Shown: positions 7,126 through 62,986, counted from the first letter of the stretch. The stretch: 64,000 nucleotides of DNA from Candidatus Bruticola sp. (GCA_051874695.1 JBJEGC010000007.1:231465-295464), one strand, 5' to 3'. Numbers and translations: made by a program. The notes: a model not told the origin generated them from the sequence alone.

Positions 7126-7148
7126 GGAACTCAGATAGTTTACCGAAA

Positions 7149-15590: not shown

Positions 15591-15726
15591 GCGAGTTTGT
15601 TTGACATTGTAACAGTAAAGAAAATTAGCTTAATTCGGATGATATAACTAATGTAAAAGCATTATGTGTTATGGTATGGTAACCCATAGGTACTCTATGC
15701 CCTGATAAGGGCAGGCTTTCCGGTCT

Positions 15727-17177: not shown

Positions 17178-17288
17178 CAGCTTGTCTTAACGAACAGCAA
17201 AAAAGAATTACAACTTTTCGCTTGTGGATAGGGCGGAGTTTTTTTAGTGTACAGAGGTGCGAAGGTGCATTTTAAAGAGAAAAATACT

Positions 17289-31332: not shown

Positions 31333-31349
31333 AAAGGAGAGATTTCTTT

Positions 31350-46647: not shown

Positions 46648-46679
46648 GTTGCTATTGAAGCAGACACACCTATAAAAAT

Positions 46680-46712
46680 AAAGGCCGCTGCTTAAAATAA
46701 GCAGCGGCCTTT
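46680..46712 (-). terminator. Intrinsic terminator downstream of paralog 1
   Basis: AAGGCCGCTGCTT (46681-46693) pairs with AAGCAGCGGCCTT (46699-46711), with a T-rich run on the minus strand. Confidence 0.7.
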
Positions 46713-46725
46713 ATTAGTTGTTTTT

Positions 46726-49122
46726 TTAGTAGTTGGCGAACATTTTGACCATCACTTTGCGATGGGCAGAAGTAGCCAAAAGTTTGTTAATGTAGGAAGG
46801 ATCGAAGGTCATTTCCACACTTTTGGCTTTATATGAAATGTTGCCCTTGTCGTCCGTCTTGGTGGCTTCACCGTCAGCTTGCGGATCTTTTCCGTAAGCG
46901 ACCATGGAGCCGGTCAGATTTAGGCGGCTGTCTTTGCCTATGTCGACATTGATATTGCCGCAAGCGTAGATAACACCAGCAATTTCCTGATCGGAGTAGT
47001 TAATACTCTGATAGCGGCTGAGCAGTCCGGCCAACTGCTGAGTTTTGTACGTTTCATAGTTTTCGGTCTGCTCGGCAGGAGGAACGAACTTGTCGCTCAT
47101 GTTGACATTGGTAATGGAAGCCATTTCTTGATTGCTGCTGCTACCTTCCTCAATTTTAGTTTGAGCTGCAGCCTTACCGGCATTGTACAATTTTTTAATA
47201 GCCTGGTAGAATTCGCAGGTAGACGTATTATGATTTTCCGCCGGTATACATACCGTATAGATGCCTATTCTCCAGTCAAATCTGTATTCATATGTGTCAC
47301 AAGAACACATTACTACTTTTGGATCGTTTGCTATGTAGTTACTTAACGTATCTTGGCCCAACATACCTTCAGAGTAAACTTGAGCCATTAGAGCTCTGCC
47401 TTTTTCGGTATTTATAAAACCTGTTATACCGGAGGTACTTTTCTCTGAGCTGCAGTAGGCACGTCCGCCGTTTATGCAACTGCTGCATCCGTGTATAATA
47501 GGTACACCTGAATTTTTGAGATCGGCAATATCAAGATCGTCCGAACTTACAGCTTCAACAAGTACCGGCTTTTCGTGGGCCACACCGGTGTCTGGATCGA
47601 TAGTAACGTTATCATACGGCTTGTTTGTGTCTTTATTGGGAGTGGGAGACACTTCTTCCATATGGGCGGTGGTATTGTAAATCGTCTCTAAGTTTACGTC
47701 GCCTTTAGCGTAAATGGAGACGCCGACGCCAGGATCCGATTCCAGAATGCTGGGACCTTGTATGCTGATATTGCCTTCGGCGGTAATAGCCCCGTTGCCG
47801 ATAGTGGCTCCGGAAATGGTAATATTGCCGGTGCCGGTCAGAATAGTTGTGTTGTTGTCACCCTGATTCTTGCTGGAAAATCCCACAATAGGACGGGTGC
47901 CGTATTCGTTTATATCGGAACGAATTAACAGATCGCCTTCAACGTACATGTTTCGGTCGAACATGATGGCTAAATTGTCGTTGTCGACGGTCATGTTGGT
48001 GGTAGTATTGCCAATTATCTCGTAGCCACTGTCAGGAAGAGTCTTTCCGTAAGGGTATATCTCTCCGGGATAATGGTGTAGTTCGTTTTTACCGGAGGAG
48101 TTTCTTACCCATACGTAAGTGCCGGCTGACAGTTTCGTGTCTTTTTCAGTGGCTCGGGGAATATCTTCCCAGGATAGAGCCGTAAAGTTCTTACCCGAGC
48201 TGCTCTGTTCACTCTTTACAGTTTGGGGTTTTTTACTGTTTACTTTGAACGAATCTCCGTAATAGACGGTGGCTCCATTTTCGATTTTGAAGTTGTCGTC
48301 ATTTTTGCCAACTTTTAAATTTATTTTGCCCAAAGAGCGCATGTTGGGCGCTGCAGAACCGTCTGAGGAAATTAAAGAAAATGATTCTACTTTGGCTGTA
48401 ATGTCGCCAGCAGCACTGACTACTGAATCGGAATTTAAGAAGTCGGGATCGAGGGACACATAAAGTTCCAGCACCTGTTGGGTGTAGCCCGAGTCTTCGT
48501 TGATAGGGTTATCTAAAGTAGCGTCGCGTACGGCTTCGCCGCTGAAACCTTCTACAATAAGGTTGCAGGTGGCTTTAGGAATTGTAACCGCCTGTACGTT
48601 TTCGTTAGGAGTAAAGACCGTCTTACCGTTGCTGGTGACATGTTTGCCCATGACTACGCCGTTTTTGTCGGCGGGGTAGGCAAAGCGGGGAACGGTATTG
48701 AAAAGGTTGTTGGTTGAAATGTAGGGAGACTCGATTTTGTTGGCGCTATTTTTCATGCCATCTAAACCGTCGTCTCCGTCTTCGCAGTTGAACTTAATGC
48801 GAAATACGGACTTCTTGCCACTGACACTGGTTACAATGCCCCAGACATTGCCTTCCTTTTCTTTCACCTCAAAATTGTTGACTTTTAACTCGTAAGGTGA
48901 AGAAGGGTTACCTTTCCAAAGAATATTGCTCTGCAGACGAGTAATGGCGTACTGGGCACCGGAATGCGCAGCCATAAGAGCGTTTTCTTTGTCGTAGAAA
49001 TTGTTGGTCATCCTTAAACTGCCGAGGTTCGAATAAACAACCGAGCTCAGGAGCATCATAACTAAGACAACTGCCAGCATTGTAGTTATCAGTACAATAC
49101 CTTTTTTCCGTTCCTTCAGCAT
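46726..49122 (-). CDS. Large PilX-N-domain surface protein, paralog 1 of 6 (putative pilus-associated adhesin; Cys-rich cassette)
   Basis: 798-aa ORF with GGAGG 5 nt upstream. The N-terminus MLKERKKGIVLITTMLAVVLVMMLLSSVVYSN...ALMAAHSGAQYAI matches the PilX_N pattern as I recall it (basic-Gly-hydrophobic helix, then A..AA.SG). There is no prepilin G/FTLxE site. Shares the SILESDPGVGVSIYAKGDVNL and YSDQEIAGVIYA.GNINVDIG blocks with the other five copies. Confidence 0.75.
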   Translation of the reverse strand: MLKERKKGIVLITTMLAVVLVMMLLSSVVYSNLGSLRMTNNFYDKENALMAAHSGAQYAITRLQSNILWKGNPSSPYELKVNNFEVKEKEGNVWGIVTSVSGKKSVFRIKFNCEDGDDGLDGMKNSANKIESPYISTNNLFNTVPRFAYPADKNGVVMGKHVTSNGKTVFTPNENVQAVTIPKATCNLIVEGFSGEAVRDATLDNPINEDSGYTQQVLELYVSLDPDFLNSDSVVSAAGDITAKVESFSLISSDGSAAPNMRSLGKINLKVGKNDDNFKIENGATVYYGDSFKVNSKKPQTVKSEQSSSGKNFTALSWEDIPRATEKDTKLSAGTYVWVRNSSGKNELHHYPGEIYPYGKTLPDSGYEIIGNTTTNMTVDNDNLAIMFDRNMYVEGDLLIRSDINEYGTRPIVGFSSKNQGDNNTTILTGTGNITISGATIGNGAITAEGNISIQGPSILESDPGVGVSIYAKGDVNLETIYNTTAHMEEVSPTPNKDTNKPYDNVTIDPDTGVAHEKPVLVEAVSSDDLDIADLKNSGVPIIHGCSSCINGGRAYCSSEKSTSGITGFINTEKGRALMAQVYSEGMLGQDTLSNYIANDPKVVMCSCDTYEYRFDWRIGIYTVCIPAENHNTSTCEFYQAIKKLYNAGKAAAQTKIEEGSSSNQEMASITNVNMSDKFVPPAEQTENYETYKTQQLAGLLSRYQSINYSDQEIAGVIYACGNINVDIGKDSRLNLTGSMVAYGKDPQADGEATKTDDKGNISYKAKSVEMTFDPSYINKLLATSAHRKVMVKMFANY

Positions 49123-49297
49123 TGCTGCCTCCTATAAATAATTGCAGAAAACTATTATTAAAAAGTATTCCGTTTGTCCTTCTAATTATATGGTTTTACG
49201 GCTATAATTATCAATTAGAAAAAATACAATCTGCTTTCAAAAAGATAAAAAGGACTTTATCTTTTAATTTTTACCTAAATAAAACTTTAATTTATGT

Positions 49298-49338
49298 AAA
49301 AAAAGAGCTTCTGCTGTAAAGCAGAGAGCTCTTTTTTT
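49298..49338 (-). terminator. Intrinsic terminator downstream of paralog 2
   Basis: AGAGCT.CTGC / GCAG..AGCTCT hairpin flanked by an A-run and a T-run. On the minus strand it is followed by TTTTTTT. Confidence 0.5.
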
Positions 49339-49393
49339 GTTTAGGCAGAAAATAGCCCGTTACTTGTTATTAATTTAAAGATTTACTTGTAGC

Positions 49394-51774
49394 TCAGAAG
49401 TTGTTGTACATTGAACACATAAGCTTACGCCTGGCATTGGAAGCCATAAAAGCGTTCATATAATCGGCATCTAAAGTTAATCCTATAGTGTTGGCTTTAA
49501 TCTTTATATTGCCGCGATCGCTGTTCCCTTCAGGGCCTCCCTTACTCGGATCTTGACCGTAGGCCACCATGGCCCCGTTTACATTCAGAGTGCTATTTTC
49601 GCCTATATCGACGTTTATATTGCGCCAAGCGTAGATCATGCCGGATATATCCTGATCCGAATAGCGCAGCTGGCCGTAACGCTTGAGGAGGCTGTTCAGC
49701 TGCTGCTGTTTGTAATCGCGGAAGTTTTCACTGACCACCTTATCGTCGACAAATTTTTTGGCTTTTTTGGCTTCCAAGTTATTGTCGATAGTAATTTGGT
49801 TAGCGGGATTTTCATCACCGTATCCTGCTTGGTAGCAGGTTATCCAGTTGCTTGAATTACAGTAATGAGTGACAGCTAAGTTAACTTCGTTATCTGCTAT
49901 GGCAGCTTCAATAGCGCTGTTTATTTTGGCTTTCTTGCCCTCAGTATCGCCTAAAATGTCTTCCGAATCGGGATCAGGAATATCTAATAAAGTGGTTCCT
50001 TCTGGGGGATCGATGCGCGCAGCATAGTTCTGGTATAAGTAGTGCTCCAAGCAGGCCTCGACTTCGCTGTCGGCTATGTCGTCACAGTTTGACCCTGAGT
50101 GCAACTTATTCCTTAAATAGGAAACTGCTCCGTTAAAAGTGTCGTTGTCGGAATCGTAAGTGAAATAAGAATTGGCTGCATTGGCCGTGAAGTCTATGTT
50201 TTTATTTTGTTCCTGTACGGCCTGAGTGGCACTGTCAATGGGAAGAAAATTGACATCTTCTTTAGCATAGACGGAAACGCCCAGTCCGGGATCCGATTCT
50301 AAAATGCTGGGACCTTGCAAAGAGACGCTGCGCTCTGAAGTAATGGATCCGCTGCCTAAAGTAGCCCCTTGAATGGAAACGTTGCCGTTGGCACTGAGAA
50401 TGGGATCGTTGTCGGTGGGGGAGTTTTTAATGAAGGCCACTACCGGACGGGTAATTTCGCTGCAGCTGTCATCGTATCTAATTTCGATGGGGCCGTTTAC
50501 CTTTATGTTGTTGCTGATAATGATGGTCGCATTAGAGGTATCAATGGTGAAACCGTCGCTGCTGCTGACCGGATGGGCAACATTGTTTTGCTTTTTGAAT
50601 CTCGAGCGTTTTCCTCTTTTCTTTTTTACTTCGGCGTTAGGGTCGCTGTCATAACGAGAGAGGGTGTAGCCGCTGTTTTCGCCGCTGTTCTTTTTCCAAA
50701 CGTAAATACCGCCTTCACGAGTTTCGTAATTTTTGCTGGTATCCGCTTTAGTTACGTCGTCCCATTTAATTCGAGCAATGTCGTCTTTGTATTCATCTGA
50801 AGATTTTATAATGCTGAAATTGGAGCCAGTAACTTGTCCAAATTTGGCTTCTTTGTCATTTAGTTTTACTTTGCCGCCGGAAACGGCCTCGCCGTTGTCA
50901 AAAACTATGTTGCTATAGTTAAGATCCATGTCGCGCAGACTGTGGATGCGGGGAGCAGAAGTACTTTGAGCGCTTTTTATGTTGATATTTTCGGCGCTGG
51001 CTTTAAGATAACCGCCTGCTCCGAGTACGGAGTTGGTGTAAGAATAGTTTGGATCGAAAGTAAAATAAACTTCCATGACATTGCGGCAGACACCACTGCT
51101 GAAACCTGCCGAGCAGTCTAAAGCGTTCTGTATACCGATCATGTTTTTCAGGGAAAGATCGCGCACTCCGTTGCCGGAAAAGCCTTCTCCACAATAAGGC
51201 GGCAGGTTGACTTGGGAAGTTCAAAGCCGACGGTGCCGTCAGTTACCTTATGGCTAGTTTTACCGTATTCATCTTGATAAGTTTTGGTTTTAAGTATGCC
51301 GTCGGAGTCGGCCTCGTATACGTTGCGCACGGCGCTGCTGTATAGATTGTTTACTGATACGTAGGGAGATTTTATCAGGTAATTTTTATCGGAAGTATTG
51401 TTCATATTATCGAAGCCATTTTCGCCGTCTTCATAATTGAATTTAATGCGGAAAAATGACCGACGTCCGTTTTGAGTAGTGAGCATGCCCCAAACATTGC
51501 CGTCTTTTTCGGTAACTTCCAATCCCACATTGGAATTATACAATTTGCTGTTAGGATCGCATCCTTGCCAAGTGATATTATCCTGCAGTTTGGTAAGAGC
51601 GTAATCGACTCCGGACTGTGCTGCCATGAGAGCTTCTTCTCTGGCGTAGAAATTAGAAGTGAGACACATACCGCCGAAGTTGGAATAAACGACTGAGCTG
51701 AGCAACATAAGTATTAAAACTATGGTCAGCATAGTTGTTATCAGTACGATTCCCTGCTTGCGCTTGGTGAGCAT
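49394..51774 (-). pseudogene. PilX-N-domain paralog 2 of 6, interrupted by a frameshift (track ORFs 51148-51774 and 49394-51166)
   Basis: The two overlapping ORFs together recapitulate the full family architecture (208 aa + 590 aa). Removing 2 nt from GTGGAGAAGGC at about 51183-51190 restores the family-consensus CRLIVEGFSGNGVRDLSLKNM. Confidence 0.75.
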
Positions 51775-52027
51775 GCAGTCTTTACCTCCGTTTGTTTTGT
51801 GGTTTTGCTGAATTGTATTTATTTTTTTGCCGTGAACTATCTGCGATAAGCAAAAATGGATGGGCTTCAGTTTACATTAATAAAACTCATTCTTTGATTA
51901 AACGATTTTATTGTTGAATATTCAAGTATTAAAATATTAAATGTTTGTGCTAATTTGGCTAGGCCTATTTAATTTTGCTGTAAATACGGCCATAATTTTT
52001 TTTGTTGGGATTATTTTTTCTTGGAAT

Positions 52028-52064
52028 AAAAAAAGCCCCAGCTTCACAAAAAAGTCCGGGGCTG
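52028..52064 (-). terminator. Intrinsic terminator downstream of paralog 3
   Basis: The minus strand reads AGCCCC..(loop)..GGGGCT followed by TTTTTTT. Confidence 0.55.
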
Positions 52065-52084
52065 ATCGTTAGGAAGCTTTATTT

Positions 52085-54586
52085 TTAGAAGCTGGAGAAC
52101 ATAATTTGTTTCAGTTTTCTCCTGGCGTTTGTCGATATAAAAGCTCCCATGTAGTCGGGATCGAGAGTCATACCTACAGCTTTAGCATCTATTTTAATTT
52201 GGCCGCCTTCGCCGTTTCCGGGAGTGCTGTTGTTCGGATTACCTCCGTAAGCAACCATGGCGCCCGTCAAGTTGAGATTGCTGTTGGCACCAATATTTAT
52301 GTTAATATTGCGCCAGGCGTAAATGACTCCGGAAATATCCTGGTCGGAATACTTCACTTCTCCGTAGCGGATCATCAGCTCGTTAAGCTGGCTTTGCTTA
52401 TTTTCGCGGAAGTTTTGACTGACCAGGCTCTGATCGACATAGGTCATCACATTGCTCATGTTGCTGGGACTGAAATCGACGGCAGAATTACTGCTGGAAA
52501 TTGAAGGTCTATTAGTCCAATTTCCTCGGCCATTGTTGTTGCTGCTCCAGTTGTTCCTGTCTTTTAGATAATTTATTAGGTCTTGGGCTTTTTCCTTAAA
52601 CTCTTGGCGCTTCTGATTTATATCCCTCATTTTAGACTCAGATATAGCCCCAAAGTCGTTTATCTGCGTTAGACCGGACAACATTGTTCCACCTTTTGTG
52701 GTATCCAAATCGTCGAAATCGAATGCGGACTCAAACGCCTTGTTAAAAACATCGGAAAACTTTTCTTTTTCCCAGCCTTTGGGTCCTTTGCCTGAGGAGA
52801 AGTTCATAGTGGCACCCTGATCGTACCAAAATTCGTAAAATTCATTGAAGTAAGTGTCAATTAATCTATCGTCATAAAAAGGTGTATAATTACTAAAACC
52901 ATTCTCGCGGAAAGCCGAGGCGTAGCTTGACATGAGTGTCTTATAAGCATTTTTGGCGTCATTGAATTTGTTTTGGGCAGCTCCGGCGTCTTCCAGTTTG
53001 ACATCGTAATTTTTGTTGTTGCCGGGTTGGGCACTCATAGTGGGGTCGCTTTCAGCCAGTTGGGACGTCTCAAGCTCGGCTTTCTTTACGGTTTCGGTTA
53101 CATCTTCGATGGGCAGTAGGTTGACGTCGCCCTTGGCGTATACCGAAACGCCGACTCCGGGATCCGACTCTAAAATACTCGGCCCCTGTAGGGAAATGTT
53201 GCCGGCCGAAATTATGGAGCCGCCTCCTAAAGTGGCGCCTTCAATGAAAATGTTGTTATCAGAAGTTATAAGCGGGTAGTTGCCAGAGTCGTCTTCCAGG
53301 AAAGCCACGATGGGGCGAGAAGCTCCGCTTTCTTTGTCGTAGCGGACAATAAAAGACGAGGTTTCACCGTTGGAAGCAACAGACAGATTTCCAGAAATTT
53401 TCATGGTTTGGGAATCAAAGTCAATCTCTACGCCGGGTAGTTCCTTAGCTGTTACTTTAGTTTTGGCCGTATCTGCTGGAATAGTGGTACCCGGGGGGAA
53501 GTTTCCGTCGTAGCGGAACAAGATATTCGCTTTACCGCTTTGGTCACTGGGATCTTTCTCCCAGCAGTAAGTGCCGGCCGCAACCTTGTTGAAGGTTTTT
53601 CCCTTGCATTTATCTTGTATCGATTCCCAGGTAATTTGAGCGAAGTTGCTGCTGTCTCTGCTGGTAGAAACAGTGTAATTCGATTTAGCGGGATTGGATA
53701 CTTTAATAGTGCTGCTTTTAGCTGAGACAATCTCTCCGTCGGACATATCGAGCAGACCGGTATCAATGGTAGCACTGTTCAGAGTGCGCATTTTAGGAGA
53801 AGTACTGCCTTTGGCGTTGCTGGCTCTGATTAGGTCGGCAGTTATAGTCAGATCACCGGCAGCACTGGCTACTGAGTCGGTGAATTGTTCTTCTGAGTCC
53901 AGAGTTAAGTAAGCTTCAGAGCGAATGGACGTCTGTCCGGAAAACTCGGAGTAGCGTAAGCTGGCTACATCTTTTAAATCTAAATCGCGTAGGGAATTGC
54001 CTGCAAAACCTTCCGCTATTAAGTAGCAGCTGCCTTTGCCTATACGGAAACCGAGTGATCCGACGGCTTCTGTATGCTTGATGCCGCAAGAATCGCTGAC
54101 TTCTTGAAGCGTGGTGGTGCCGTCAGCAGAAGCTGTATAAACTTTGGTAGGAGTACTGTTGAATAAGTTGTTTACCGAAACATAGGGAGAAGCGATTAGC
54201 TCGGAAGATCCGCTGTTATTGAGACCGTCCAGACCATTGGCGCCGTCTTCATAATTGAATTTTAGGCGGAAGAAGGACCGGTTGCCGTTGGCTGTAGTTA
54301 TACAGCCGAGCACGTTGCCGTTTTTTTCAATAACTTCTAAGCCTTTGCTTGTTTCTGAAACAGTTTTGTAATCGGCAGCTCGCCAGGTAATATCGTCTTG
54401 TAGCCTGGTAATGGCGTACTGTATGCCTGATTGAGCCGCCATAAGAGCCTCTTCTCGTCCATAGAAGTTAGAGGCCAGGCGCATACCGCCCAAGTTAGAA
54501 TATACAACTGAACTGAGCAGCATAATTATCAATACAACTGTTAGCATTGTAGTTATTAAAACAATGCCGCGCTTGTCTTTCAGCAT
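52085..54586 (-). CDS. Large PilX-N-domain surface protein, paralog 3 of 6
   Basis: 833 aa from ATG 54586 (MLKDKRG), 9 nt after GGAGG. The track start at 54595 is a TTG lying against the RBS. Same N-terminal anchor and scaffold blocks as the other copies, with a unique central cassette at about 52490-53080. Confidence 0.75.
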   Translation of the reverse strand: MLKDKRGIVLITTMLTVVLIIMLLSSVVYSNLGGMRLASNFYGREEALMAAQSGIQYAITRLQDDITWRAADYKTVSETSKGLEVIEKNGNVLGCITTANGNRSFFRLKFNYEDGANGLDGLNNSGSSELIASPYVSVNNLFNSTPTKVYTASADGTTTLQEVSDSCGIKHTEAVGSLGFRIGKGSCYLIAEGFAGNSLRDLDLKDVASLRYSEFSGQTSIRSEAYLTLDSEEQFTDSVASAAGDLTITADLIRASNAKGSTSPKMRTLNSATIDTGLLDMSDGEIVSAKSSTIKVSNPAKSNYTVSTSRDSSNFAQITWESIQDKCKGKTFNKVAAGTYCWEKDPSDQSGKANILFRYDGNFPPGTTIPADTAKTKVTAKELPGVEIDFDSQTMKISGNLSVASNGETSSFIVRYDKESGASRPIVAFLEDDSGNYPLITSDNNIFIEGATLGGGSIISAGNISLQGPSILESDPGVGVSVYAKGDVNLLPIEDVTETVKKAELETSQLAESDPTMSAQPGNNKNYDVKLEDAGAAQNKFNDAKNAYKTLMSSYASAFRENGFSNYTPFYDDRLIDTYFNEFYEFWYDQGATMNFSSGKGPKGWEKEKFSDVFNKAFESAFDFDDLDTTKGGTMLSGLTQINDFGAISESKMRDINQKRQEFKEKAQDLINYLKDRNNWSSNNNGRGNWTNRPSISSSNSAVDFSPSNMSNVMTYVDQSLVSQNFRENKQSQLNELMIRYGEVKYSDQDISGVIYAWRNININIGANSNLNLTGAMVAYGGNPNNSTPGNGEGGQIKIDAKAVGMTLDPDYMGAFISTNARRKLKQIMFSSF

Positions 54587-54727
54587 GTATACCAACCTCC
54601 TTTGCCTAAATTAAATGTCAATTGAGAAAATATGCGGTAACTTTTCTCAGAACTGTCTCATTTTTTATCATGTCTGATGCTTTTCTTTGAGATAAGCGCC
54701 ACTTTCTGCGTGCTATTGTACAAACAA

Positions 54728-54770
54728 AGCCCGCTTCCTTTAGCAAATCTTTACTAAAAGAGTGCGGGCT
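54728..54770 (-). terminator. Terminator-like hairpin downstream of paralog 4 (conserved intergenic module)
   Basis: AGCCCGC (54728-54734) pairs with GCGGGCT (54764-54770). The minus strand continues TTGTTTG. Homologous hairpins occur at 57441-57482 and 60141-60180. Confidence 0.5.
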
Positions 54771-54826
54771 CTGCGTATTTTTCGTTTTTTTTGACTACTG
54801 CCAAGAGGCGTAGCTCAAAAGAGCGG

Positions 54827-57304
54827 TTAGAAGCTGGAGAACATAATCTGCTTAAGTTTTCTCCTGGCATTTGTTGATATAAAGGCTCCCATGTAATCGG
54901 GGTCTAGAGTCATGCCCACAGCTTTGGCATCTATCTTAATTTGGCCGCCTTCGCCGTTGCCGGGAGTACTGCTGTTAGGATTGCCTCCGTAGGCGACCAT
55001 AGAACCCGTTAAATTGAGAGTGCTGTTGGAGCCAATATTAACGTTAATGTTGCGCCAAGCGTAAATAACTCCGGAAATATCTTGGTCAGAGTATTTCACT
55101 TCTCCATAGCGGGCCATCAATTCGTTAAGTTGGTTCCCTTTGTTTTCGCGGAAGTTCTGACTGGCTAGATTATGGTCGACATAATTTTGCACATTGTTCA
55201 TGTCGCTGGGAGTGAATTCAGCGCTGGGAGTAGTTTCAGTAGGAGAAGAAGGAGTAGCATTGCCATTATCTACAACTTCCCAGTGATCGAATGCGAGTAG
55301 ATATCGCATAGCTTCCCTGGCTTCTTCGTAAAACTCTTCGCGGGCTTCTTTAAGATCCTCTATTTGATCTTTACTGCAATTATTGTAGCGTCCGAAATTA
55401 CTCACATCGAGATAAGGGGAGTCTTCGGAGTTGTTTCTTACGTTTACTTGTATCATTTGTAAATCGAAGGCCATAGGACCGCTATATTGCTGAGGAGTCC
55501 ATGCGGGAAGCATTTGCTTGCGCTCAAAGTAATTAGTAGCAGCTTGGGAGTGCCAATAGGAATAGAAACTAGCAAAACTGGCAAGATTTCTCTCTTCATC
55601 GCTATAGATGTTACTTATCTTTTTATAGGCCTTCATGAGGTCTTTATAGGCATCTAGTGCCTCTTCGTACTTTTTCTGGTATTTTTTTTCATTTTCAAGT
55701 ACAGCAACTTTACCTGTGTTTGCTTGGCCTTCTTCTTTAGTTGGCTTTGAGTTTATGGTGGAATCAACTTCTGACTGTTGAAATTTCTCCGGCTCAGCCT
55801 TTTTTACTGTTTCGGTTGCGTCTTCAATGGGCAACAGGTTGACGTCGCCTTTAGCGTATACCGAAACGCCAACTCCAGGATCAGATTCTAAAATGCTCGG
55901 CCCCTGCAGGGATATATCGCCGGCTGAAATTATGGAGCCGCCTCCCAAGGTGGCGCCTTCAATGAAAATGTTGTTGTCGGAAGTTATAATTGGGTAGTCG
56001 CCGGAGCTATTTTGCAAAAAGGCCACTATAGGGCGAGAAGCTCCACCTTCCTTGTCGTAGCGGATAATAAAAGATGAGGTCTCCCCATTGGAAGCAATGG
56101 AACAATTTCCGGAAATTTTCATGGTCTGGGAAGTAAAATCGATTTCGATGCCAGGCAATCCGTTGGCCGTTACTTTAGTTTTGGCCGTATCTGTTGGAAT
56201 AGGGGTGCCCGGAGGGAAGTTGCCTTCATAACGGACTAATATGTTAGTTTTGCCACTTTTGTCATCGGGATCTTTTTCCCAGCAGTAAGTGCCAGCTGTA
56301 ACCTTATTGAAGCTTTTGCCCTTGCATTTGTCTTGTACCGATTCCCAGGTAATTTGAGCAAAGTTGCTGCTGTCTTTGCTGGTAGAAACGGTATAGTTCG
56401 ACTGTTGGGGATTGGAAACTTTAATGTCGCTGCTATTAGCTGAGACGATCTCTCCATCGGACATATCGAGCAGAGCCGTATTGATGGTAGCACTGTCCAA
56501 AGTGCGCATTTTAGGGGAAGTGCTGCCTTTGGCATTGCTGGCTTTAATTATGTTGGCATTTATAATTAGATTGCCAGCGGCACTGGCTACAGAGTCGGTA
56601 AATTGTTCTTCTGAGTCCAGAGTTAAGTAAGCTTCAGAGCGAATGGAAGTCTGGCCGGACAATTCGGAGCTACGTAAGCCGGCTAAGTCTTCTAAAGCTA
56701 AATCGCGCAGAGAATTGCCAGCAAAACCTTCTGCTATTAAGTAGCAGCTGGCTTTACCTACGCTAAAACTGGAAACGCTGTCGGCCTCCGTGTGCTTGGT
56801 TCCGTAAGAATCGGTAACTTCTTTAAGTTTTGTAGTACCATCAGCAGAAGCCATGTAAACTTTGGCTGGAGTACTGTTGAACAAGTTGTTTACTGAAACG
56901 TAGGGAGAAGCGATTAGTTCGGAGGAGCTGCTGTCATTAAGACCGTCCAAACCACCGGCTCCATCTTCATAGTTGAACTTCAGGCGGAAGAAGGACTTGT
57001 TGCCGTTGGTGGTAGTTATACAGCCTAGCACGTTGCCGTTTTTTTCAATAACTTGCAAACCTTTGTTTGTTTCTGAAATAGTTTTACTGTCGGCAGCCCG
57101 CCAGGTAATATCATCTTGTAGTCTGGTAATGGCGTAATGTAGGCCCGATTGAGCCGCCATAAGGGCCTCTTCTCTTCCGTAAAAGTTAGAGGCCAGGCGC
57201 ATGCCGCCTAAGTTAGAGTATACAACCGAACTGAGCAGCATAGTTACCAATACAACTGTTAGCATTGTAGTTATTAAAACAATACCACGCTTGTTTTTCA
57301 GCAT
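54827..57304 (-). CDS. Large PilX-N-domain surface protein, paralog 4 of 6
   Basis: 825 aa from ATG 57304 (MLKNKRG), 9 nt after GGAGG. The track start at 57340 adds 12 non-homologous residues. The flanks are closely similar to paralog 3, with a unique cassette at about 55235-55798. Confidence 0.75.
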   Translation of the reverse strand: MLKNKRGIVLITTMLTVVLVTMLLSSVVYSNLGGMRLASNFYGREEALMAAQSGLHYAITRLQDDITWRAADSKTISETNKGLQVIEKNGNVLGCITTTNGNKSFFRLKFNYEDGAGGLDGLNDSSSSELIASPYVSVNNLFNSTPAKVYMASADGTTKLKEVTDSYGTKHTEADSVSSFSVGKASCYLIAEGFAGNSLRDLALEDLAGLRSSELSGQTSIRSEAYLTLDSEEQFTDSVASAAGNLIINANIIKASNAKGSTSPKMRTLDSATINTALLDMSDGEIVSANSSDIKVSNPQQSNYTVSTSKDSSNFAQITWESVQDKCKGKSFNKVTAGTYCWEKDPDDKSGKTNILVRYEGNFPPGTPIPTDTAKTKVTANGLPGIEIDFTSQTMKISGNCSIASNGETSSFIIRYDKEGGASRPIVAFLQNSSGDYPIITSDNNIFIEGATLGGGSIISAGDISLQGPSILESDPGVGVSVYAKGDVNLLPIEDATETVKKAEPEKFQQSEVDSTINSKPTKEEGQANTGKVAVLENEKKYQKKYEEALDAYKDLMKAYKKISNIYSDEERNLASFASFYSYWHSQAATNYFERKQMLPAWTPQQYSGPMAFDLQMIQVNVRNNSEDSPYLDVSNFGRYNNCSKDQIEDLKEAREEFYEEAREAMRYLLAFDHWEVVDNGNATPSSPTETTPSAEFTPSDMNNVQNYVDHNLASQNFRENKGNQLNELMARYGEVKYSDQDISGVIYAWRNINVNIGSNSTLNLTGSMVAYGGNPNSSTPGNGEGGQIKIDAKAVGMTLDPDYMGAFISTNARRKLKQIMFSSF

Positions 57305-57440
57305 GTATACTAACCTCCTTTGCAAAAAATTTAATATCAATTGAGAGAACTTTTGGCAGATTTTTTGTATTATTTGCCTCTGTTTATCTCTCAGCCGTTA
57401 TCTAACACAGAGTTTCTTTCTCTAGTTATTTCGCAAACAA

Positions 57441-57482
57441 AGCCCGCGTCCTTTATTTAAGTTTAATAAAGAAACGCGGGCT
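57441..57482 (-). terminator. Terminator-like hairpin downstream of paralog 5
   Basis: AGCCCGCGTCCTTTATT..AATAAAGAAACGCGGGCT forms a long imperfect stem. Confidence 0.55.
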
Positions 57483-57553
57483 TTGCAGTATTTTTATACT
57501 GTTAATTTAAGCTCAGGCGGAGTCGCTAAGAAGCACGCCGACTAAGAAGTAGT

Positions 57554-59986
57554 TTAGAAGCTGGAGAACATGGTCACCTTCAGTTTGCGTCTAGCATTGG
57601 CTGACAGGAAAGCTCCCATGTAATCGGGATCGAGAGTCATACCTATACTGCCTGCATTGATAGTAATGGTTCCTTTGTTATCTTTTCCGGGAGTTTTTGT
57701 TTTGGGATTTGCTCCGTAGGCAACCATAGCTCCGGTAAGATTGAGGGTGCTGTTCTGGCCTATATCGGCATTGATGTTGCCCCAAGCGTAAATAACGCCA
57801 GAAATATCCTGATCAGAATATTTAAGATTGCCGTAACGGGTCAGGAGGTCAGCCAATTGAGCTTCTTTATTGTCGCGGAAGTTGTCGGTGGCCAGATCTT
57901 TATCGATGCAGTCCTGCACATTGTTGATGTCGCTGGGAGAAAGTGACGTATCTGCTTCGGTGGAACCAGTAGGTTGGGTTATAAGCTCCCAGTTATCAAT
58001 GTTCCATAAATATAAATCCAGCCTTCCGGATTTAGAATACAGTAAAGTGGAAAGCTTGTCAGCTTCTGTTTTGTTCATGGTGTTGCAGCCGTTATAAGCC
58101 GGATTTTCTGTCCAGTCTGAATCCCATGGTTCAACTTCACCTATATCATTGTAGAAAGCACTGACCATGGTCTTTCTGTAATCGCAAAATTTATCAAATA
58201 TCTCTTTTGCAGCTTCGATATGTGACTGCTCTTGGAATAAACCTGTGCTAACAGAGGGAGGGTTGCCTTCTGGACCAAAAGGGCCCTGACCGGGTCTGGG
58301 AGGCCTTTCTTGATATTGTAAGGAGGCTATGATATCATTAAAAATTTCACTCCTCAGGTCTTCGTAATCGGTGGAACTTTTGAAGACGTAAACTTGTTTT
58401 GTGCCACTTTCTCCAGTTGTTCCTGATCCGGAAGTTGTGCCGTTGTTGTCGGCTGCTGGCGGATTAGTGGGTTTTATTGTGTCTTTAACTGTAGTGGTCA
58501 GATCTTCGATAGGCAGTAGATTGACATCTTTTTTAGAGTAGATTGAGACACCTACGCCGGGATCCGATTCCAAAATGCTCGGTCCTTGCAGAGAAATGTT
58601 GCCCTCAGAAGTAATAGAGCCTCCTCCCAAAGTAGCGGCCTGTAGGAATATATCACCTGAAGAACTGATAATAGGAGAAGTTTTTGTGTTCGAATTCTCC
58701 AATAGGGCCACAATCGGTCTGGAAGCGCCGCTGTCTTTGTCGTAGCGCACTATGAAAGATGAGTCTTTGCCGTCAGCTACCACCAGAAGATTCTTCGATA
58801 TTTTCATAGTTTGGGTGTCGTTATCTATGGTCATGCCGGGCAGGCTGGTTATAGTAACTGACTTAGCGTCGGCAGGGATAGGCTCGCCGGGAGGATAGTT
58901 GCCCTGGTAACGCTTTAGAACGTTCTTTTTTGTTTCGGGATTGACACTCCATACATAAGTGCCTGCCTCCAGCTTTTCGTATTCCTGGCCGGGAGAATTG
59001 GCTTTAGTTATGTCATCCCACAAAATTTGCGCGAAGTTGTCAGAATCGCTGCTGCTTTGAGCCTTGTAAGTGGCATCTTTGTCGATAGCTTGGCCGTTTA
59101 TGGTGTAGTTGCAGTCTTTACCGTAGTAGAATTGTCCGTTGGCAAAATCAATTTTTTCGCTTTGTACGGTCAGATTCTTTAAGGTGCGGATTTTGGGAGC
59201 AGATCCGCCTTTAGCGTTATCTACGCGCAGAATAGAAGAAGTTGTTTTTAAATCGTTGGCGGCGCAGGCTACCGAATCGGTAAACTGTTCGTCGGCTGCC
59301 AAGCCCAGGTAGCTTTCTACCGTTATGCAAGCAGCATTGCAGCGATCTTTGGGCATATTTAGCATATTTTCTAAACTCAGATCGCGCACTCCGTCGCCGG
59401 CAAAACCTTCTACTACCAGATAGCAGCTCGATTTTTCTAAAACGAAGCTGCTGGAGTTTTCCGCCTCTTGACGGTTTTTGCCGTATTCGTCTTTGTAGCT
59501 TTTCAGCGTGAGGCTGCCTTCTTTGGAAGCGGTGTAAACTTTTGTGGAAGTACTGCTGAAAAGGTTGTTGACGGAAACGTAAGGAGAAGGAATTTTGTCT
59601 GAGCTAGAGCTGTCGTTCAAACCATCGAAGCCGTTATCGCCGTCTTCGTAATTGAACTTAATGCGGAAGAAGGAGCGGCGTCCGTTTTTGCTGTCGAGCA
59701 TGCCGACTACGTTGCCGTTCTTTTCCATAACGCTCAGCCCTTTAGAGCTATCGGAAATAGTTTCGCTTTCGTCGCAGCCCTTCCAGGTAATGTTGTTCTG
59801 CAGTTTGGTAATGGCGTACTGGACGCCCGATTGGGCGGCCATAAGAGCCTGCTCGCGTCCGTAGAAGTTAGAAGCCAGACGCATGCTGCCTAGGTTAGAG
59901 TATACAACTGAACTTAGCAGCATAATTACCAATACTACTGTTAGCATTGTGGTTATTAAAACAATGCCGCGCTTGTTTTTCAGCAT
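57554..59986 (-). CDS. Large PilX-N-domain surface protein, paralog 5 of 6
   Basis: 810 aa from ATG 59986 (MLKNKRG), 9 nt after GGAGG. Near-identical flanks to paralog 6, with a unique cassette at about 58010-58385. Confidence 0.75.
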   Translation of the reverse strand: MLKNKRGIVLITTMLTVVLVIMLLSSVVYSNLGSMRLASNFYGREQALMAAQSGVQYAITKLQNNITWKGCDESETISDSSKGLSVMEKNGNVVGMLDSKNGRRSFFRIKFNYEDGDNGFDGLNDSSSSDKIPSPYVSVNNLFSSTSTKVYTASKEGSLTLKSYKDEYGKNRQEAENSSSFVLEKSSCYLVVEGFAGDGVRDLSLENMLNMPKDRCNAACITVESYLGLAADEQFTDSVACAANDLKTTSSILRVDNAKGGSAPKIRTLKNLTVQSEKIDFANGQFYYGKDCNYTINGQAIDKDATYKAQSSSDSDNFAQILWDDITKANSPGQEYEKLEAGTYVWSVNPETKKNVLKRYQGNYPPGEPIPADAKSVTITSLPGMTIDNDTQTMKISKNLLVVADGKDSSFIVRYDKDSGASRPIVALLENSNTKTSPIISSSGDIFLQAATLGGGSITSEGNISLQGPSILESDPGVGVSIYSKKDVNLLPIEDLTTTVKDTIKPTNPPAADNNGTTSGSGTTGESGTKQVYVFKSSTDYEDLRSEIFNDIIASLQYQERPPRPGQGPFGPEGNPPSVSTGLFQEQSHIEAAKEIFDKFCDYRKTMVSAFYNDIGEVEPWDSDWTENPAYNGCNTMNKTEADKLSTLLYSKSGRLDLYLWNIDNWELITQPTGSTEADTSLSPSDINNVQDCIDKDLATDNFRDNKEAQLADLLTRYGNLKYSDQDISGVIYAWGNINADIGQNSTLNLTGAMVAYGANPKTKTPGKDNKGTITINAGSIGMTLDPDYMGAFLSANARRKLKVTMFSSF

Positions 59987-60140
59987 ATACACTTACCTCC
60001 TTTGTGTAAATTTTGACGGCGCAATTTAATGGCACTTCAGATAATTTTTTTGTAGTTTTTTTGTGATTCTTCGTTTTTTGTCAGTTCTGCCTCTATTTTT
60101 TCGAAAAAGAGGCCTCTTTTAGAATTATTGCACAAACAGA

Positions 60141-60180
60141 GCCCGCGTCCTTTATCAAATCATAATAAAAGAACGCGGGC
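60141..60180 (-). terminator. Terminator-like hairpin downstream of paralog 6
   Basis: GCCCGCGTCCTTTAT..ATAAAAGAACGCGGGC. Confidence 0.55.
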
Positions 60181-60254
60181 CCTGCGTTTTTTTTGATACT
60201 ATTGCGACTTAGTTTGGGCGGATCTGCCAAGAAGCATATCGCCCAAGCTGCGGT

Positions 60255-62654
60255 TTAGAAGCTGGAGAACATGGTCAGCTTCAGTCTGCGTCGAGAGTTG
60301 GCCGACAAGAAGGCTCCCATGTAATCGGGATCGAGGGTCATGCCTATGCTACCTGCATTGATAGTAATGGTTCCTTTGTTATCTTTTCCGGGAGTTTTTG
60401 TCTTGGGATCGGCTCCGTAGGCGACCATGGCTCCAGTGAGGTTGAGGGTGCTGCTTTGGCCTATATCGGCGTTGATATTGCCCCAAGCGTAAATAACGCC
60501 AGAAATGTCTTGATCGGAATATTTGAGTTTGCCGTAGCGGGTCATAAGATCGGCTAATTGGGCTTCTTTGTTGTCGCGGAAATTGTCGGTGGCCAGATCT
60601 TTGTCGATGCAGTTCTGTACATTGTTGATGTCGCTGATAGAAAGCTCCGTATCTGCTTCGGTTGAACCTGTGGACGTAGATTTGGTTGCCGATTCCCAAT
60701 TGTTTATGTTACGGAGGTAGTTGCGTATATCGTTTACCGGATGGTGAGAATCTTCATCACAAAGCTCTATCATCAAAGCATGCCACTCGGTCATGTTCAG
60801 GCCGTCACGCTCTTCAGAGCTGATTGAATCTGAAAAAGATTGATTGAGCTCGTTAGGATTAGTATCTCCGCCATTTTTTACCGTGGTTTCATATTTTTCC
60901 AATTGCGTGCAGTATTTTTCATATATAGATTTAGAAATATTGTAGCTATTGTCATCATTGAAGTTATCGAGACCGAACTTATTTCTTATATGATTGATTA
61001 CTAGTTGAAAAGTGTCCAGCTTCAATTGATCGTATGCTTCGTCTTGTTTAAGAATGTAAACTTCTTCTGTGCCGCTTCCTCCCGTTGTTACCGACCCGGA
61101 AGTGGTGCCGTTGTTGTCGGCCGTTGACGAATTAGCAGGGCTTATCTTGTCTTTGACTGTAGTGGTCAGATCTTCGATAGGCAGCAGATTGACGTCTTTT
61201 TTAGAGTAGATTGAGGCACCCACACCGGGATCCGACTCTAAAATGCTTGGCCCTTGTAGAGAAATGTTGCCCTCGGAAGTAATGGAGCCACCTCCCAAAG
61301 TGGCGGCCTGTAAGAATACGTCACCTGAAGAACTGATAATAGGAGAAGTTTTGGTGTCCGAATTTTCTAATAGGGCTACGATCGGTCTGGAAGCACCGCT
61401 GTCTTTGTCGTAGCGGACTATGAAAGACGAGTTGTCGCCGTCGGCTACCACCAGAAGATTCTTCGATATTTTCATGGTTTGGGTGTCGTTGTCTATGGTC
61501 ATGCCGGGCAGGCTGGTTATGGTAATCGACTTAGCGTCGGCAGGAATAGACTCGCCAGGAGGATAGCTGCCCTGGTAACGCTTTAGAACGTTCTTTTTAG
61601 TTTCGGGATCGACGCTCCATACGTAAGTGCCTGCTTCCAGTTTTTCGTATACCTGGCCGGGAGAATTGGCTTTAGTTATGTCATCCCACAAAATTTGTGC
61701 GAAGTTGTCAGAATCGTTGCTACTTTGAGCCTTGTAAGTAGCATTTTTGTCGATAGCTTGGCCGTTTATGGTGTAGCTGCAGTCTTTGCCGTAGTAAAAC
61801 TGTCCGTTGGCAAAATCAATTTTATCGCTTTGCACGGTCAGATTCTTCAAGGTGCGTATTTTAGGAGCAGATCCGCCCTTAGCGTTATCTACGCGCAGAA
61901 TAGAAGAGGTTGTTTTTAAATCGTTGGCGGCGCAGGCTACCGAATCGGTAAACTGTTCGTCGGCTGCCAAGCCCAGGTAGCCTTCTACCGTTACGCAAGT
62001 AGCATTGCAGCGATCTTTGGGCATGTTCAGCATATCTGATAAATTTAAATCGCGCACTCCGTCGCCGGCAAAGCCTTCCACCACCAAATAACAACTCGAT
62101 TTGTCTAAAACGAAGCTGCTGGAGTTTTCCGCCTCTTGGCGGTCTTTGCCGTATTCGTCTTTGTAGCTTTTCAGTGTGAGGCTGCCCTCTTTGGAAGCAG
62201 TGTAAACTTTAGTGGGAGTACTGCTGAAAAGATTGTTGACAGAAACGTAAGGAGAAGGAATTTTGTCTGAGCTGGAGTTGTTGTTCAGACCATCGAAGCC
62301 GTTTTCGCCGTCCTCGTAGTTGAACTTAATGCGGAAGAATGAACGGCGTCCGTTTTTGCTGTCGATCATACCGACCACGTTGCCGTTCTTTTCCATAACA
62401 CTCAGCCCCGTGGAGCTGTCGGAAATAGTTTCACTTTCGTCGCAGCCTTTCCAGGTAATGTTATTCTGCAGCTTTGTAATGGCATACTGAACGCCCGATT
62501 GGGCGGCCATAAGAGCCTGCTCGCGTCCGTAAAAGTTGGAAGCCAGCCTCATACTGCCCATGTTTGAGTAGACTACCGAACTAAGCAGCATAATTACTAA
62601 CACTACCGTTAGCATGGTAGTGATTAGCACTATGCCCCGTTTGTTTTTTAACAT
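60255..62654 (-). CDS. Large PilX-N-domain surface protein, paralog 6 of 6 (first in transcription order)
   Basis: 799-aa ORF, with AAAGGAGG 5 nt upstream of the ATG. Unique cassette at about 60715-61055. Confidence 0.75.
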   Translation of the reverse strand: MLKNKRGIVLITTMLTVVLVIMLLSSVVYSNMGSMRLASNFYGREQALMAAQSGVQYAITKLQNNITWKGCDESETISDSSTGLSVMEKNGNVVGMIDSKNGRRSFFRIKFNYEDGENGFDGLNNNSSSDKIPSPYVSVNNLFSSTPTKVYTASKEGSLTLKSYKDEYGKDRQEAENSSSFVLDKSSCYLVVEGFAGDGVRDLNLSDMLNMPKDRCNATCVTVEGYLGLAADEQFTDSVACAANDLKTTSSILRVDNAKGGSAPKIRTLKNLTVQSDKIDFANGQFYYGKDCSYTINGQAIDKNATYKAQSSNDSDNFAQILWDDITKANSPGQVYEKLEAGTYVWSVDPETKKNVLKRYQGSYPPGESIPADAKSITITSLPGMTIDNDTQTMKISKNLLVVADGDNSSFIVRYDKDSGASRPIVALLENSDTKTSPIISSSGDVFLQAATLGGGSITSEGNISLQGPSILESDPGVGASIYSKKDVNLLPIEDLTTTVKDKISPANSSTADNNGTTSGSVTTGGSGTEEVYILKQDEAYDQLKLDTFQLVINHIRNKFGLDNFNDDNSYNISKSIYEKYCTQLEKYETTVKNGGDTNPNELNQSFSDSISSEERDGLNMTEWHALMIELCDEDSHHPVNDIRNYLRNINNWESATKSTSTGSTEADTELSISDINNVQNCIDKDLATDNFRDNKEAQLADLMTRYGKLKYSDQDISGVIYAWGNINADIGQSSTLNLTGAMVAYGADPKTKTPGKDNKGTITINAGSIGMTLDPDYMGAFLSANSRRRLKLTMFSSF

Positions 62655-62762
62655 ACTGACCTCCTTTGCTAATTAGTTTCGGAGTATGTTGTACACACGA
62701 AAATTGTGTCAGTTGTTTTTCGCTTGGGCAACGTAGAAAAAACGCATATTTGCCCTCCTTTG

Positions 62763-62837: not shown

Positions 62838-62986
62838 TGCGGTTGTATAGAAAAAAATAGAAATGAATGGCTTTCAACTGTTGTTAACTGATCGCAATAT
62901 GTTACAAAGGAGTGAGATTTTTGCAAAAATGACAAAATAGATAAAAAATCAGCTTGTCTAAGCAGAAAAAAATTTGTAAATTTAAG

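Follow-up and report, generated by a model that had tools for sequence, protein, structure and literature searches.

The subunits at the tip of a type IV filament set its first contact. In well-studied bacteria with type IV pili (T4P), small K-class pilins share this role with separate PilY1/PilC adhesins, and the known variation is mostly that of the major pilin. Here we analyse a 64,000-nucleotide stretch of DNA from Candidatus Bruticola sp. (GCA_051874695.1, JBJEGC010000007.1:231465-295464), referred to below as the window, in which positions 46726-62654 of the minus strand hold six head-to-tail paralogs, c1-c6. Five are intact and c2 is frameshifted according to open reading frame (ORF) calling; each carries a conserved scaffold with an insert, here called the cassette, that differs from copy to copy. 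The products of the six genes are probably alternative K-class subunits, ComZ/PilX-like, for the apex of a type IV filament; this filament may be a T4P, a competence pilus or some related pseudopilus.

The closest described systems belong to the same protein class. In the large minor pilin ComZ of Thermus thermophilus (6QVI), a GspK-like pilin part carries, before its last strand, a triangular beta-solenoid similar to that of the ice-binding protein FfIBP; the bulk of ComZ fits only the tip, which is the position argued for it, and it binds DNA through lysines between its two domains and is essential for transformation (PMC6561018). It is the sole significant fold match among solved structures for our models of c6 and of a minimal family member, but ComZ has no detectable sequence similarity to the window proteins, and it differs from them in being single-copy, in adjoining pilA2 in a competence locus and in lacking a hypervariable helical cassette. 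The cyanobacterial PilX1/2/3 and HpsA-type PilX proteins are likewise apical minor pilins that lack the glutamate at position +5 (Glu5) and carry a bulky beta-solenoid; several paralogs per genome are assigned to different filament types, the PilV partner does not always adjoin, and it has been suggested that they stand in for PilY1 as the plug or adhesin of the tip (bioRxiv 10.64898/2026.02.12.705559). These genes are dispersed and specialised (competence versus motility/exopolysaccharide), not tandem near-identical scaffolds with one varying cassette, and strain-level cassette replacement has not been described for them. GspK/XcpX of type II secretion systems (T2SS), PilK/PilX of the type IVa pilus and CpaL of the Caulobacter Tad system also lack Glu5 and have a conserved extreme C-terminal strand, which in GspK and CpaL is preceded by a large dispensable middle module, the alpha-domain of GspK and an adhesin of ~470 aa in CpaL (PMC13533445). 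An I-J-K gene module is a further common feature, present in relatives of the window proteins. The window proteins, however, are 2-3 times larger than GspK, tandemly amplified and, in the gut lineage, unlinked from I/J genes. In Neisseria, a T4P part is varied by recombination over conserved flanks (pilE/pilS) and alternative tip proteins exist (PilC1/PilC2). There it is the major pilin that varies, by means of silent partial donors, whereas here it is a K-class tip subunit encoded by complete genes, and the variation of the window family looks like stable population alleles.

The protein class (GspK/PilX/ComZ/CpaL) and the occurrence of multiple tip proteins in one genome (cyanobacterial PilX1-3, Neisseria PilC1/2) are already known. 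What is new is a K-class gene uncoupled from its I/J partners and amplified to 3-6 tandem copies at one conserved place in the chromosome of gut Xenobia; a cassette that is predicted to be a structured helical module inserted in the solenoid; and position-specific cassette hypervariation, with whole-cassette allelic replacement between otherwise 99% identical strains. Our literature search found no paper describing such tandem variable-cassette K-class arrays.

The AlphaFold2 model of c6 (predicted local distance difference test, pLDDT, 84.3; predicted template-modelling score 0.69) opens with a 63-residue helix (residues 2-64) and four strands in succession. A long body rich in beta structure comes next, then a linker predicted to be disordered (508-528) and a module made up of helices only (539-648); after two conserved helices and further beta structure, the chain closes with a strand at its very C-terminus. 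The model of a minimal family member of 621 aa, P0107 (pLDDT 82.6; predicted template-modelling score 0.73), has the same order of elements, and in both models the last 7-8 residues are predicted to form the terminal strand (791-798 in c6, 614-620 in P0107). When the c6 model was compared with the Protein Data Bank (PDB) by Foldseek, one significant match was obtained, to ComZ (E 1.3e-5, Foldseek probability 0.97). ComZ was also first for P0107 (E 5e-5, Foldseek probability 1.00; a second ComZ chain at 4.5e-4), followed by FfIBP and other ice-binding proteins and then by weak matches to the pseudopilin XcpW. The same mix of resemblances is reported for ComZ by its authors (PMC6561018). For both models ComZ was the sole PDB match at E<=1e-3, a resemblance at fold level only, with 9-12% identity. 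The four strands that follow the first helix, alpha1, in both models appear in the predictions together with the weak XcpW matches and with template-modelling (TM) scores of 0.14-0.28. For the c6 cassette the prediction is of a helical module, most of it at pLDDT 80-93, while at the cassette site P0107 is predicted to have only a disordered loop of ~35 aa, which means that the scaffold would be complete without a cassette. An earlier note on this DNA, made from the sequence alone, had asked whether the cassette is a discrete inserted domain, and this is borne out at the level of secondary structure (helical, preceded by a linker, and a loop in P0107).

The sequences point to the same class of protein. 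PilX_N (PF14341) is an N-terminal profile of ~51 residues with a Pfam gathering score of 25.5 bits, and it was found above this cut-off at residues 6-55 of c3 (27.5 bits), c4 (29.9), c5 (32.2) and c6 (32.8). The NCBIfam profile T2SS_GspK (NF037980) matched with 17-26.6 bits, over profile positions 2-62 of 307 only and below its equivalog cut-off of 130 bits. The N-terminus (MLKNKRG followed by IVLITTMLTVVLVIMLLSSVVYSN) is a short basic leader ending in Gly, followed by the hydrophobic helix alpha1N of ~20 residues. In a 66-member family alignment, this Gly at position -1 stands directly before the hydrophobic helix in 63/63 aligned members, and position +5, scored in 64 members, is Thr in 58 and Ser, Met and Ile in 2 each, with Glu in none. 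The absence of Glu5 is the mark of an apical K-class subunit such as PilK, PilX or GspK (PMC13533445; bioRxiv 10.64898/2026.02.12.705559). The earlier note describes PilX_N proteins as lacking a classical prepilin cleavage motif; in this family the Gly-1 site is present and it is Glu5 that is missing. Conservation in the family alignment is 3.1 bits in the N-terminal helix and 2.3 bits in the extreme C-terminal strand, whose pattern is (R/K)(L/V)K..(M/L)(F/Y/W)..(F/Y/W), and 0.79 bits in the cassette. It has been reported that the sheet of K subunits is completed by the extreme C-terminal strand, in cis in GspK, ComGG and CpaL (PMC13533445); a conserved helix and a conserved terminal strand with a poorly conserved cassette make a layout that fits this rule. 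The Neisseria_PilC/PilY1 beta-propeller domain had no Pfam match in the paralogs, which have a pilin-type N-terminus instead. The link to pili, drawn earlier from the N-terminus, now has five lines: PilX_N, Gly-1 without Glu5, ComZ, the C-terminal strand and the linkage with I/J genes described below. The first description as PilX-N-anchored surface proteins can be refined, with fair probability, to apical K-class subunits of a type IV filament.

A separate motif, FR(I/L)(K/R)FN(Y/C)EDG..G.DG at c6 residues ~107-121 (window ~62290-62335), is near-invariant family-wide, with F107, F111, N112, E114, D115, G116, G119 and D121 as the near-invariant positions in c6. Its acidic/Gly pattern, which has equivalents in all copies and resembles the calcium-binding loops known from GspK and PilY1, marks a candidate loop of this kind.

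The family extends beyond the gut lineage. In an exhaustive profile search, E<=1e-3 was reached by 1,196 representative clusters and E<=1e-30 by 352. The majority have 600-750 aa and a small cassette or none, and cassettes across the family measure between 30 and ~250 aa. In the loci L031, L032, L034, L035 and L036, all of distant members, the family gene overlaps or abuts two prepilin genes, of ~141-166 and ~252-267 aa, both encoding Glu5 (Table 1), with overlapping stop and start codons in the modules where the partner prepilins come before the family gene. The partner N-termini are textbook ones with Glu5 (e.g., AFSLLELVL, AFTLTELML, GFSLAELVL), one partner is above the TIGR02532 cut-off, and some of the larger partners are named by NCBI [quoted passage not shown]. 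The large genes of the modules are family members (E 1.7e-137, 7.8e-126, 3.8e-117 and 5.8e-80), and in L036 a T2SSF platform gene is located 4 kb from the modules. With its three genes, the module has the I-J-K layout known from the tip complexes of T2SS and T4P.

A rival reading takes the window proteins as tips of a T2SS pseudopilus, equivalent to GspK, in which case the cassette would act in the periplasm or secretin, for example in substrate selection. The N-terminal match to T2SS_GspK, the naming of the J-type partner as GspJ by NCBI's pipeline, the T2SSF family of the nearby machinery gene in L036 (a family common to T2SS and T4P) and the inserted alpha-helical domain of GspK itself (PMC6561018, PMC13533445) all agree with this. 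However, the GspK scores, 17-27 bits where 130 are required, are confined to the N-terminus, the sole structural relative is a competence-pilus protein, ComZ, a cultured member of the Vulcanimicrobiota makes T4P (PMC9758169), and the strain-level cassette replacement and many coexisting cassette classes described below are hard to square with a periplasmic part. We therefore regard the pseudopilus as an unlikely alternative. Since the minor-pilin sets of T2SS and T4P are homologous, it differs from the K-class tip pilin that we prefer in the type of filament and not in the class of protein.

Some further sets of this kind were noticed in distant members from higher-GC Eremiobacterota. A second, far more divergent K-I-J-type set is located at 14534-17419 (minus strand) of L034 and at 4107-7266 (minus strand) of L036; that of L034 encodes proteins of 628 + 140 + 202 aa, of which the K-like one matches the family profile at E 5e-17 and has a faint DUF7305 match. 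With these second sets, it seems that multiple minor-pilin sets per genome are usual in the phylum. The I/J partners at 8774-10004 of L031 and 12878-13624 of L032 faintly match the Verru_Chthon cassette proteins B and C (TIGR02598/TIGR02599), which belong to a pilin-like multi-gene cassette of Verrucomicrobia and Chthoniobacter that may be a distant relative of the I-J-K module. A single-copy homolog (L026) has ordinary metabolic genes as neighbours and a lone GspG/PilA-like pilin 4 kb away.

Within the window, the insert between two conserved blocks is different in each of c1-c6 and measures 172-233 aa; the earlier note was right that every copy has a distinct insert, and its lengths of ~110-215 aa have to be revised. 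The identity profile along the aligned genes is not uniform, as had been anticipated, and divergence is concentrated in the cassette. For c5 and c6, protein identity is 93-98% on either side of the cassette and 10-36% within it; for c3 and c4 it is 84-98% outside and 14-38% within. At the DNA level, the identity between c5 and c6 drops abruptly from ~90% to 33-43% and returns within ~100 nt, and c3 and c4 behave alike. The c1 cassette is unlike the others, with 7 cysteines including CSSC and CSC motifs and a sequence that is less helical-looking, and it may have a different fold.

The most direct view of cassette replacement came from a related human-gut species, whose array of four genes occupies the same syntenic position, with an amylase-like gene upstream of it and the genes for CN-hydrolase and PTR2 downstream. 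Strain L027 and strains L029/L030 are 99.0-99.1% identical over 21.4 kb, and the large islands of divergence between them lie only on the cassettes of array genes 1 and 3: the gene-1 island is 482-527 nt at 45% identity (aa 507-667), and the gene-3 island is 331-349 nt at 54% identity. Both gene alleles recur on several independent contigs, and both are found in Hadza samples. From strain to strain, the whole cassette is replaced as one block whose breakpoints lie in the conserved flanks, and this pattern points to homologous recombination among long-lived allele classes. The conspecific gene-1 cassettes are mutually unalignable, yet one is 69-71% identical in nucleotides to those of other species, L006/L003, and the other 78% to that of L004, which suggests long-lived allele classes rather than drift. 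Among 25 g1-type proteins with scaffolds at least 80% identical, at least 9 cassette classes were found, in contrast to one class among 8 g2-type proteins. Hypervariation, seen in g1 (and g3) and not in g2, is thus position-specific and not a general property of the loop. A third, small island (L027 14992-15086, L029 15036-15135; 65% identity over ~95 nt) covers the final codons of gene 2 together with the beginning of the intergenic stretch ahead of gene 3, and it could alter the promoter of gene 3.

Block replacement with breakpoints in conserved flanks is also what would be expected of within-cell antigenic variation of the pilE/pilS type, in which gene conversion from silent cassette stores rewrites the expressed copies, and the frameshifted c2 could in principle serve as a donor. 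Such a mechanism is highly improbable here, because no partial, promoterless or second cassette copies were found in the window or in the collected loci (~20 kb per strain), because all copies are full length with their own ribosome-binding site (RBS) and terminator, and because the occurrence of identical alleles across many samples favours stable inheritance over rapid switching. It might also be argued that the cassette variation is non-adaptive, the site being a permissive loop under relaxed constraint with occasional recombination and no recognition role. The disordered loop at this site in minimal family members, the 30-250 aa span of cassette lengths and the fact that dN/dS (the ratio of nonsynonymous to synonymous divergence) >1 is not demonstrable with saturated dS would all be compatible with that. 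Nevertheless, the c6 cassette is predicted to be a well-packed helical module (pLDDT mostly 80-93), ORFs are kept in all cassettes, the g2 cassette is conserved (1 class/8 proteins) in the same strains in which g1 and g3 are hypervariable, and unalignable conspecific alleles each resemble the allele of another species (69-78% in nucleotides). We consider the non-adaptive explanation improbable, and recognition by the cassette of a K-class tip subunit remains the favoured role.

In the window's own lineage, the nearest relative (L001/L002, also Ca. Bruticola sp.) carries a three-copy array at this locus, in which r1 corresponds to c6/c5, r2 to c4/c3 and r3 to c1, while c2 is of the g2 type that is absent from L001. 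Gene order within the array is kept from genus to genus, and together with this mapping it indicates that c5/c6 and c3/c4 are recent tandem duplicates. The scaffold dS is 0.41-0.55 for c5/c6, 0.41-1.07 for c5/c6 and c3/c4 overall, and ~1.3-1.5 against L001. Despite the recent duplication, the c5/c6 and c3/c4 cassettes are down to ~25-30% identity. The scaffold is under strong purifying selection (dN/dS 0.04-0.13), and cassette dN is 5-20 times scaffold dN; a dN/dS comparison had been proposed in the earlier note, and it holds for these two quantities, the ratio within the cassette being lost to saturation of dS. For c1 and r3, identity is ~49-55% in the cassette and 86-88% in the scaffold. In a same-codon test, c5/c6 gave 57% for the cassette against 72-77% for the scaffold and a saturation expectation of 40%, and c1/r3 gave 51% against 57-60%, no clear difference. 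On these sequences, rapid in-place protein evolution and replacement by related alleles appear inseparable for this genome.

Several other sources of variation were considered and rejected. A prophage tail-fibre or receptor-binding protein had no tblastn match in 50,697 phage records and none in viral structures (Foldseek, E<=1e-3), and the arrays sit in a conserved chromosomal locus, which argues against a prophage origin. Diversity-generating retroelements (DGRs) are recognised by adenine-specific substitutions without indels in a short C-terminal variable region. A DGR target was ruled out here, as there is no reverse transcriptase in the window or within 10 kb on either side of the arrays, no template repeat and no second cassette copy, and the alleles differ by indels and are ~45% identical over ~500 nt. 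Slipped-strand phase variation was dismissed as well, with no simple sequence repeats and no homopolymer >8 nt in 46.6-63 kb.

Several results weigh against the proposed K-class identity or against the recombination and selection invoked for the cassettes. The PilX_N match that the earlier note had foreseen in all six copies stands above the cut-off in c3-c6 and falls below it, over the same residues 6-55, in c1 (23.7 bits) and c2 (17.0 bits). The global TM-scores to ComZ are low (0.14-0.28), and a profile search against PDB chains gave no sequence-level match to any solved structure. The 64-kb window contains no gene for a prepilin, prepilin peptidase, ATPase, platform, secretin or secretion machinery, as already remarked for pilus assembly genes before this analysis, and no classical prepilin N-terminus was found in its six frames. 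Searches for I/J partners or pilus machinery of the low-GC gut lineage, by single sequence and by profile, reached only higher-GC Eremiobacterota. As for the cassettes, the nearest relative of each window cassette is the nearest relative of its scaffold, so that exchange with distant donors is undemonstrated for this genome; promiscuous shuffling among paralogs or from distant donors is unsupported in the window lineage on account of these matching nearest relatives and of the lack of shared cassette DNA by blastn. Furthermore, synonymous sites are saturated in the cassettes, which makes positive selection inseparable from old divergence, and dN/dS as a proof of positive selection was ruled out for this reason.

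The gut-lineage arrays have no adjoining pilus genes, their flanks being amylase-like and CN-hydrolase genes. If this absence from the window and from the surroundings of every gut-lineage array were taken at face value, the N-terminal helix might be an uncleaved anchor, and the products inner-membrane-tethered periplasmic or envelope beta-helix proteins with no tie to a filament. The invariant Gly-1, the pilin-like alpha1, the fold match to ComZ and the repeated linkage with Glu5-containing prepilins in relatives make this very unlikely.

For the K-class tip subunit, the following arrangement can be proposed. The protein would comprise a short basic leader with Gly as its last residue, a hydrophobic alpha1 of ~60 residues without Glu5, a predicted small four-stranded sheet, a beta-rich body whose sole solved relative is the pilin ComZ with its ice-binding-protein-like beta-solenoid, and a cassette of 172-233 aa, predicted to be mostly alpha-helical and to sit on a flexible linker, followed by more beta structure and the C-terminal strand. 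By comparison with GspK, CpaL, ComZ and cyanobacterial PilX, we infer that without Glu5 the protein would be able to act only as the first, apical subunit of a filament. By the same analogy, the conserved helix, sheet and C-terminal strand may dock a shared I/J-type pair of minor pilins and so start off the building of the filament. Solenoid and cassette would then make up a "head" at the very tip of the filament, and the cassette may be its diversified recognition surface. Tandem duplication puts several heads in one genome, and copies are also lost, as with the decaying c2; the copies, which are probably transcribed separately, would give filaments with different tips. The role that we favour for the head is adhesion or receptor recognition under diversifying selection, for example by host surfaces or glycans, immunoglobulin A (IgA) or tip-binding phages. 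A wider "variable-head" system of gut Xenobia, combining a conserved docking scaffold, long-lived helical cassette classes, recombination via the flanks, tandem stacking and varied tips, is put forward tentatively, as a possibility that falls somewhat short of probable.

The array itself is described in Table 1. The six tandem minus-strand paralogs announced in the earlier note agree with both ORFs and alignment, and the size of ~800 aa given there applies to the five intact copies; in c2 a 2-nt frameshift had been overlooked. The motifs listed in it for the N-terminus, the middle and the C-terminus are all present in the multiple alignment, in which every copy starts with M-L-K/T..(K/R/Q)-G-IVLITTML, carries GPSILESDPG... 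in its mid block and YSDQ(D/E)I.G.IYA... in its C-terminal block, and ends in F or Y. The copies are unequally related, c5/c6 and c3/c4 being recent duplicates and c1 and c2 old lineages. In c2, duplication of the two nucleotides GA at ~51186 results in two ORFs, 51148-51774 and 49394-51166; the context is non-repetitive, GTGGA[GA]AGGC versus GT.GAAGG. in the other copies. It is the sole g2-type copy in the window, and g2 is absent from the three-copy array of L001. In the related human-gut species g2 is an array position with a conserved cassette, and a fragmented copy is also found in L024 (7547-10267). The frameshift in c2 and the absence from L001 suggest that the Bruticola-like lineage is losing the g2 type.

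When the six upstream regions were aligned, a strong RBS was seen for every gene, with the AAAGGAGGT motif ahead of c3, c4 and c5 as well as c6, and GGAGG ahead of c1 and c2. The six terminator-like hairpins have dG of -18 to -34 kcal/mol and z of -3.3 to -9.5, with a T-rich run 3' of each (ViennaRNA). An RBS and a terminator-like hairpin for each gene suggest separate transcription units. Rfam and tRNA searches gave no match in the window, the array and its surroundings included.

Table 1. Copies, cassettes and expression signals of the array (positions in the window) and gene modules of distant family members (sizes in gene order)
Feature	Position	Strand	Size	Description
c1	46726-49122	-	798 aa	intact; g3/g4-type; 7-Cys cassette; ortholog of L001 r3 (79% identity)
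c1 cassette	47065-47688	-	208 aa	Cys-rich
Terminator-like hairpin after c1	46664-46723	-		ViennaRNA folding; T-rich run
c2	49394-51774	-		frameshifted; probable pseudogene; g2-type; nearest scaffolds are the 781-aa group
c2 cassette	49730-50245	-	172 aa	
Terminator-like hairpin after c2	49298-49357	-		ViennaRNA folding; T-rich run
c3	52085-54586	-	833 aa	intact; length from conserved ATG; recent duplicate of c4
c3 cassette	52418-53116	-		aa 491-723
Terminator-like hairpin after c3	52015-52074	-		ViennaRNA folding; T-rich run
c4	54827-57304	-	825 aa	intact; length from conserved ATG; conserved RBS and ATGCTGAAA start
c4 cassette	55160-55834	-		aa 491-715
Terminator-like hairpin after c4	54719-54778	-		ViennaRNA folding; T-rich run
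c5	57554-59986	-	810 aa	intact
c5 cassette	57887-58516	-		aa 491-700
Terminator-like hairpin after c5	57436-57495	-		ViennaRNA folding; T-rich run
c6	60255-62654	-	799 aa	intact; g1-type; recent duplicate of c5; PilX_N 32.8 bits
c6 cassette	60588-61184	-		aa 491-689; predicted disordered linker 508-528, then predicted helices 539-648
Terminator-like hairpin after c6	60135-60194	-		ViennaRNA folding; T-rich run
RBS AAAGGAGGT before c6 start	62655-62672	-		alignment of six upstream regions
L031 module			156 + 252 + 621 aa	family gene 621 aa
L032 module			735 + 158 + 255 aa	family gene 735 aa
L034 module			156 + 254 + 618 aa	plus second divergent set
L035 module			141 + 257 + 643 aa	
L036 modules			701 + 158 + 267 aa and 166 + 264 + 623 aa	divergently arranged

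The closest named homologs are those of "Candidatus Bruticola sp." and "bacterium UBP9", of the Vulcanimicrobiota (Eremiobacterota/WPS-2), class Xenobia, and judged by these sequences the host is placed as an uncultured gut member of that class. Related loci come from gut or rumen metagenome-assembled genomes (MAGs) of humans (Hadza and other), goat and cattle, and arrays of 3-6 copies recur at the syntenic locus in other gut Xenobia. Some loci and proteins of this Xenobia-specific family (L007/L008/L015, CAAGRW01; L020, JAAZKF01; P0303/P0317) are from MAGs labelled "Candidatus Riflebacteria", "Burkholderiales" or "Armatimonadetes"; the CN-hydrolase gene of L015 is 100% identical to that of L027 and the amylase-like gene of L007 is 99.2% identical. 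These labels are probably due to mis-assigned taxonomy or mis-binned contigs. The window encodes lipid A and lipopolysaccharide-transport genes (LpxA/B/D, LptC/B/F-G), and the host is therefore diderm. The remaining genes are housekeeping ones: PFOR, extracytoplasmic function (ECF) sigma/anti-sigma pairs, peptidases, HSP90 and transporters.

A few neighbours deserve mention. A divergent ORF from ~62.9 kb (62950-64000, plus strand), which runs off the end of the window, is an alpha-amylase-family gene, ~1,150 aa in relatives; such a gene adjoins the array in every gut-lineage locus, and this one has 75.5% nucleotide identity to that of L027 over 1,042 nt. The ORF of LpxB, lipid-A-disaccharide synthase (1895-4342, plus strand), has 815 aa, with the LpxB domain at residues 17-360 only and ~450 C-terminal residues without a Pfam match, and may be a fusion. 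A 690-aa protein with 10 Sel1 repeats (17247-19319, plus strand) and, at 30631-32051 and 36866-38440 (plus strand), an ECF sigma factor with an adjoining zf-HC2 anti-sigma gene and a second zf-HC2 anti-sigma-like gene have no obvious link to the array.

If the proposed reading is correct, this would be the first antigenic- or receptor-type hypervariation in a tip minor pilin, and not in the major pilin or a PilY1/PilC adhesin, and the likely drivers would be host surfaces, secretory antibody or phages that bind the tip. One polypeptide would unite the priming subunit with the presumed recognition module, with the variation confined to a single replaceable cassette. The array would thus be a natural experiment separating the "machine" of a tip pilin from its "sensor", and the scaffold a possible carrier for swapped heads. 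The 22-kb loci, otherwise 99% identical, diverge most in the cassette islands, which may therefore also serve as strain markers in gut metagenomes. For the uncultured animal-gut branch of the Vulcanimicrobiota, the variable tips would provide the first concrete hypothesis on how these bacteria meet their surroundings.

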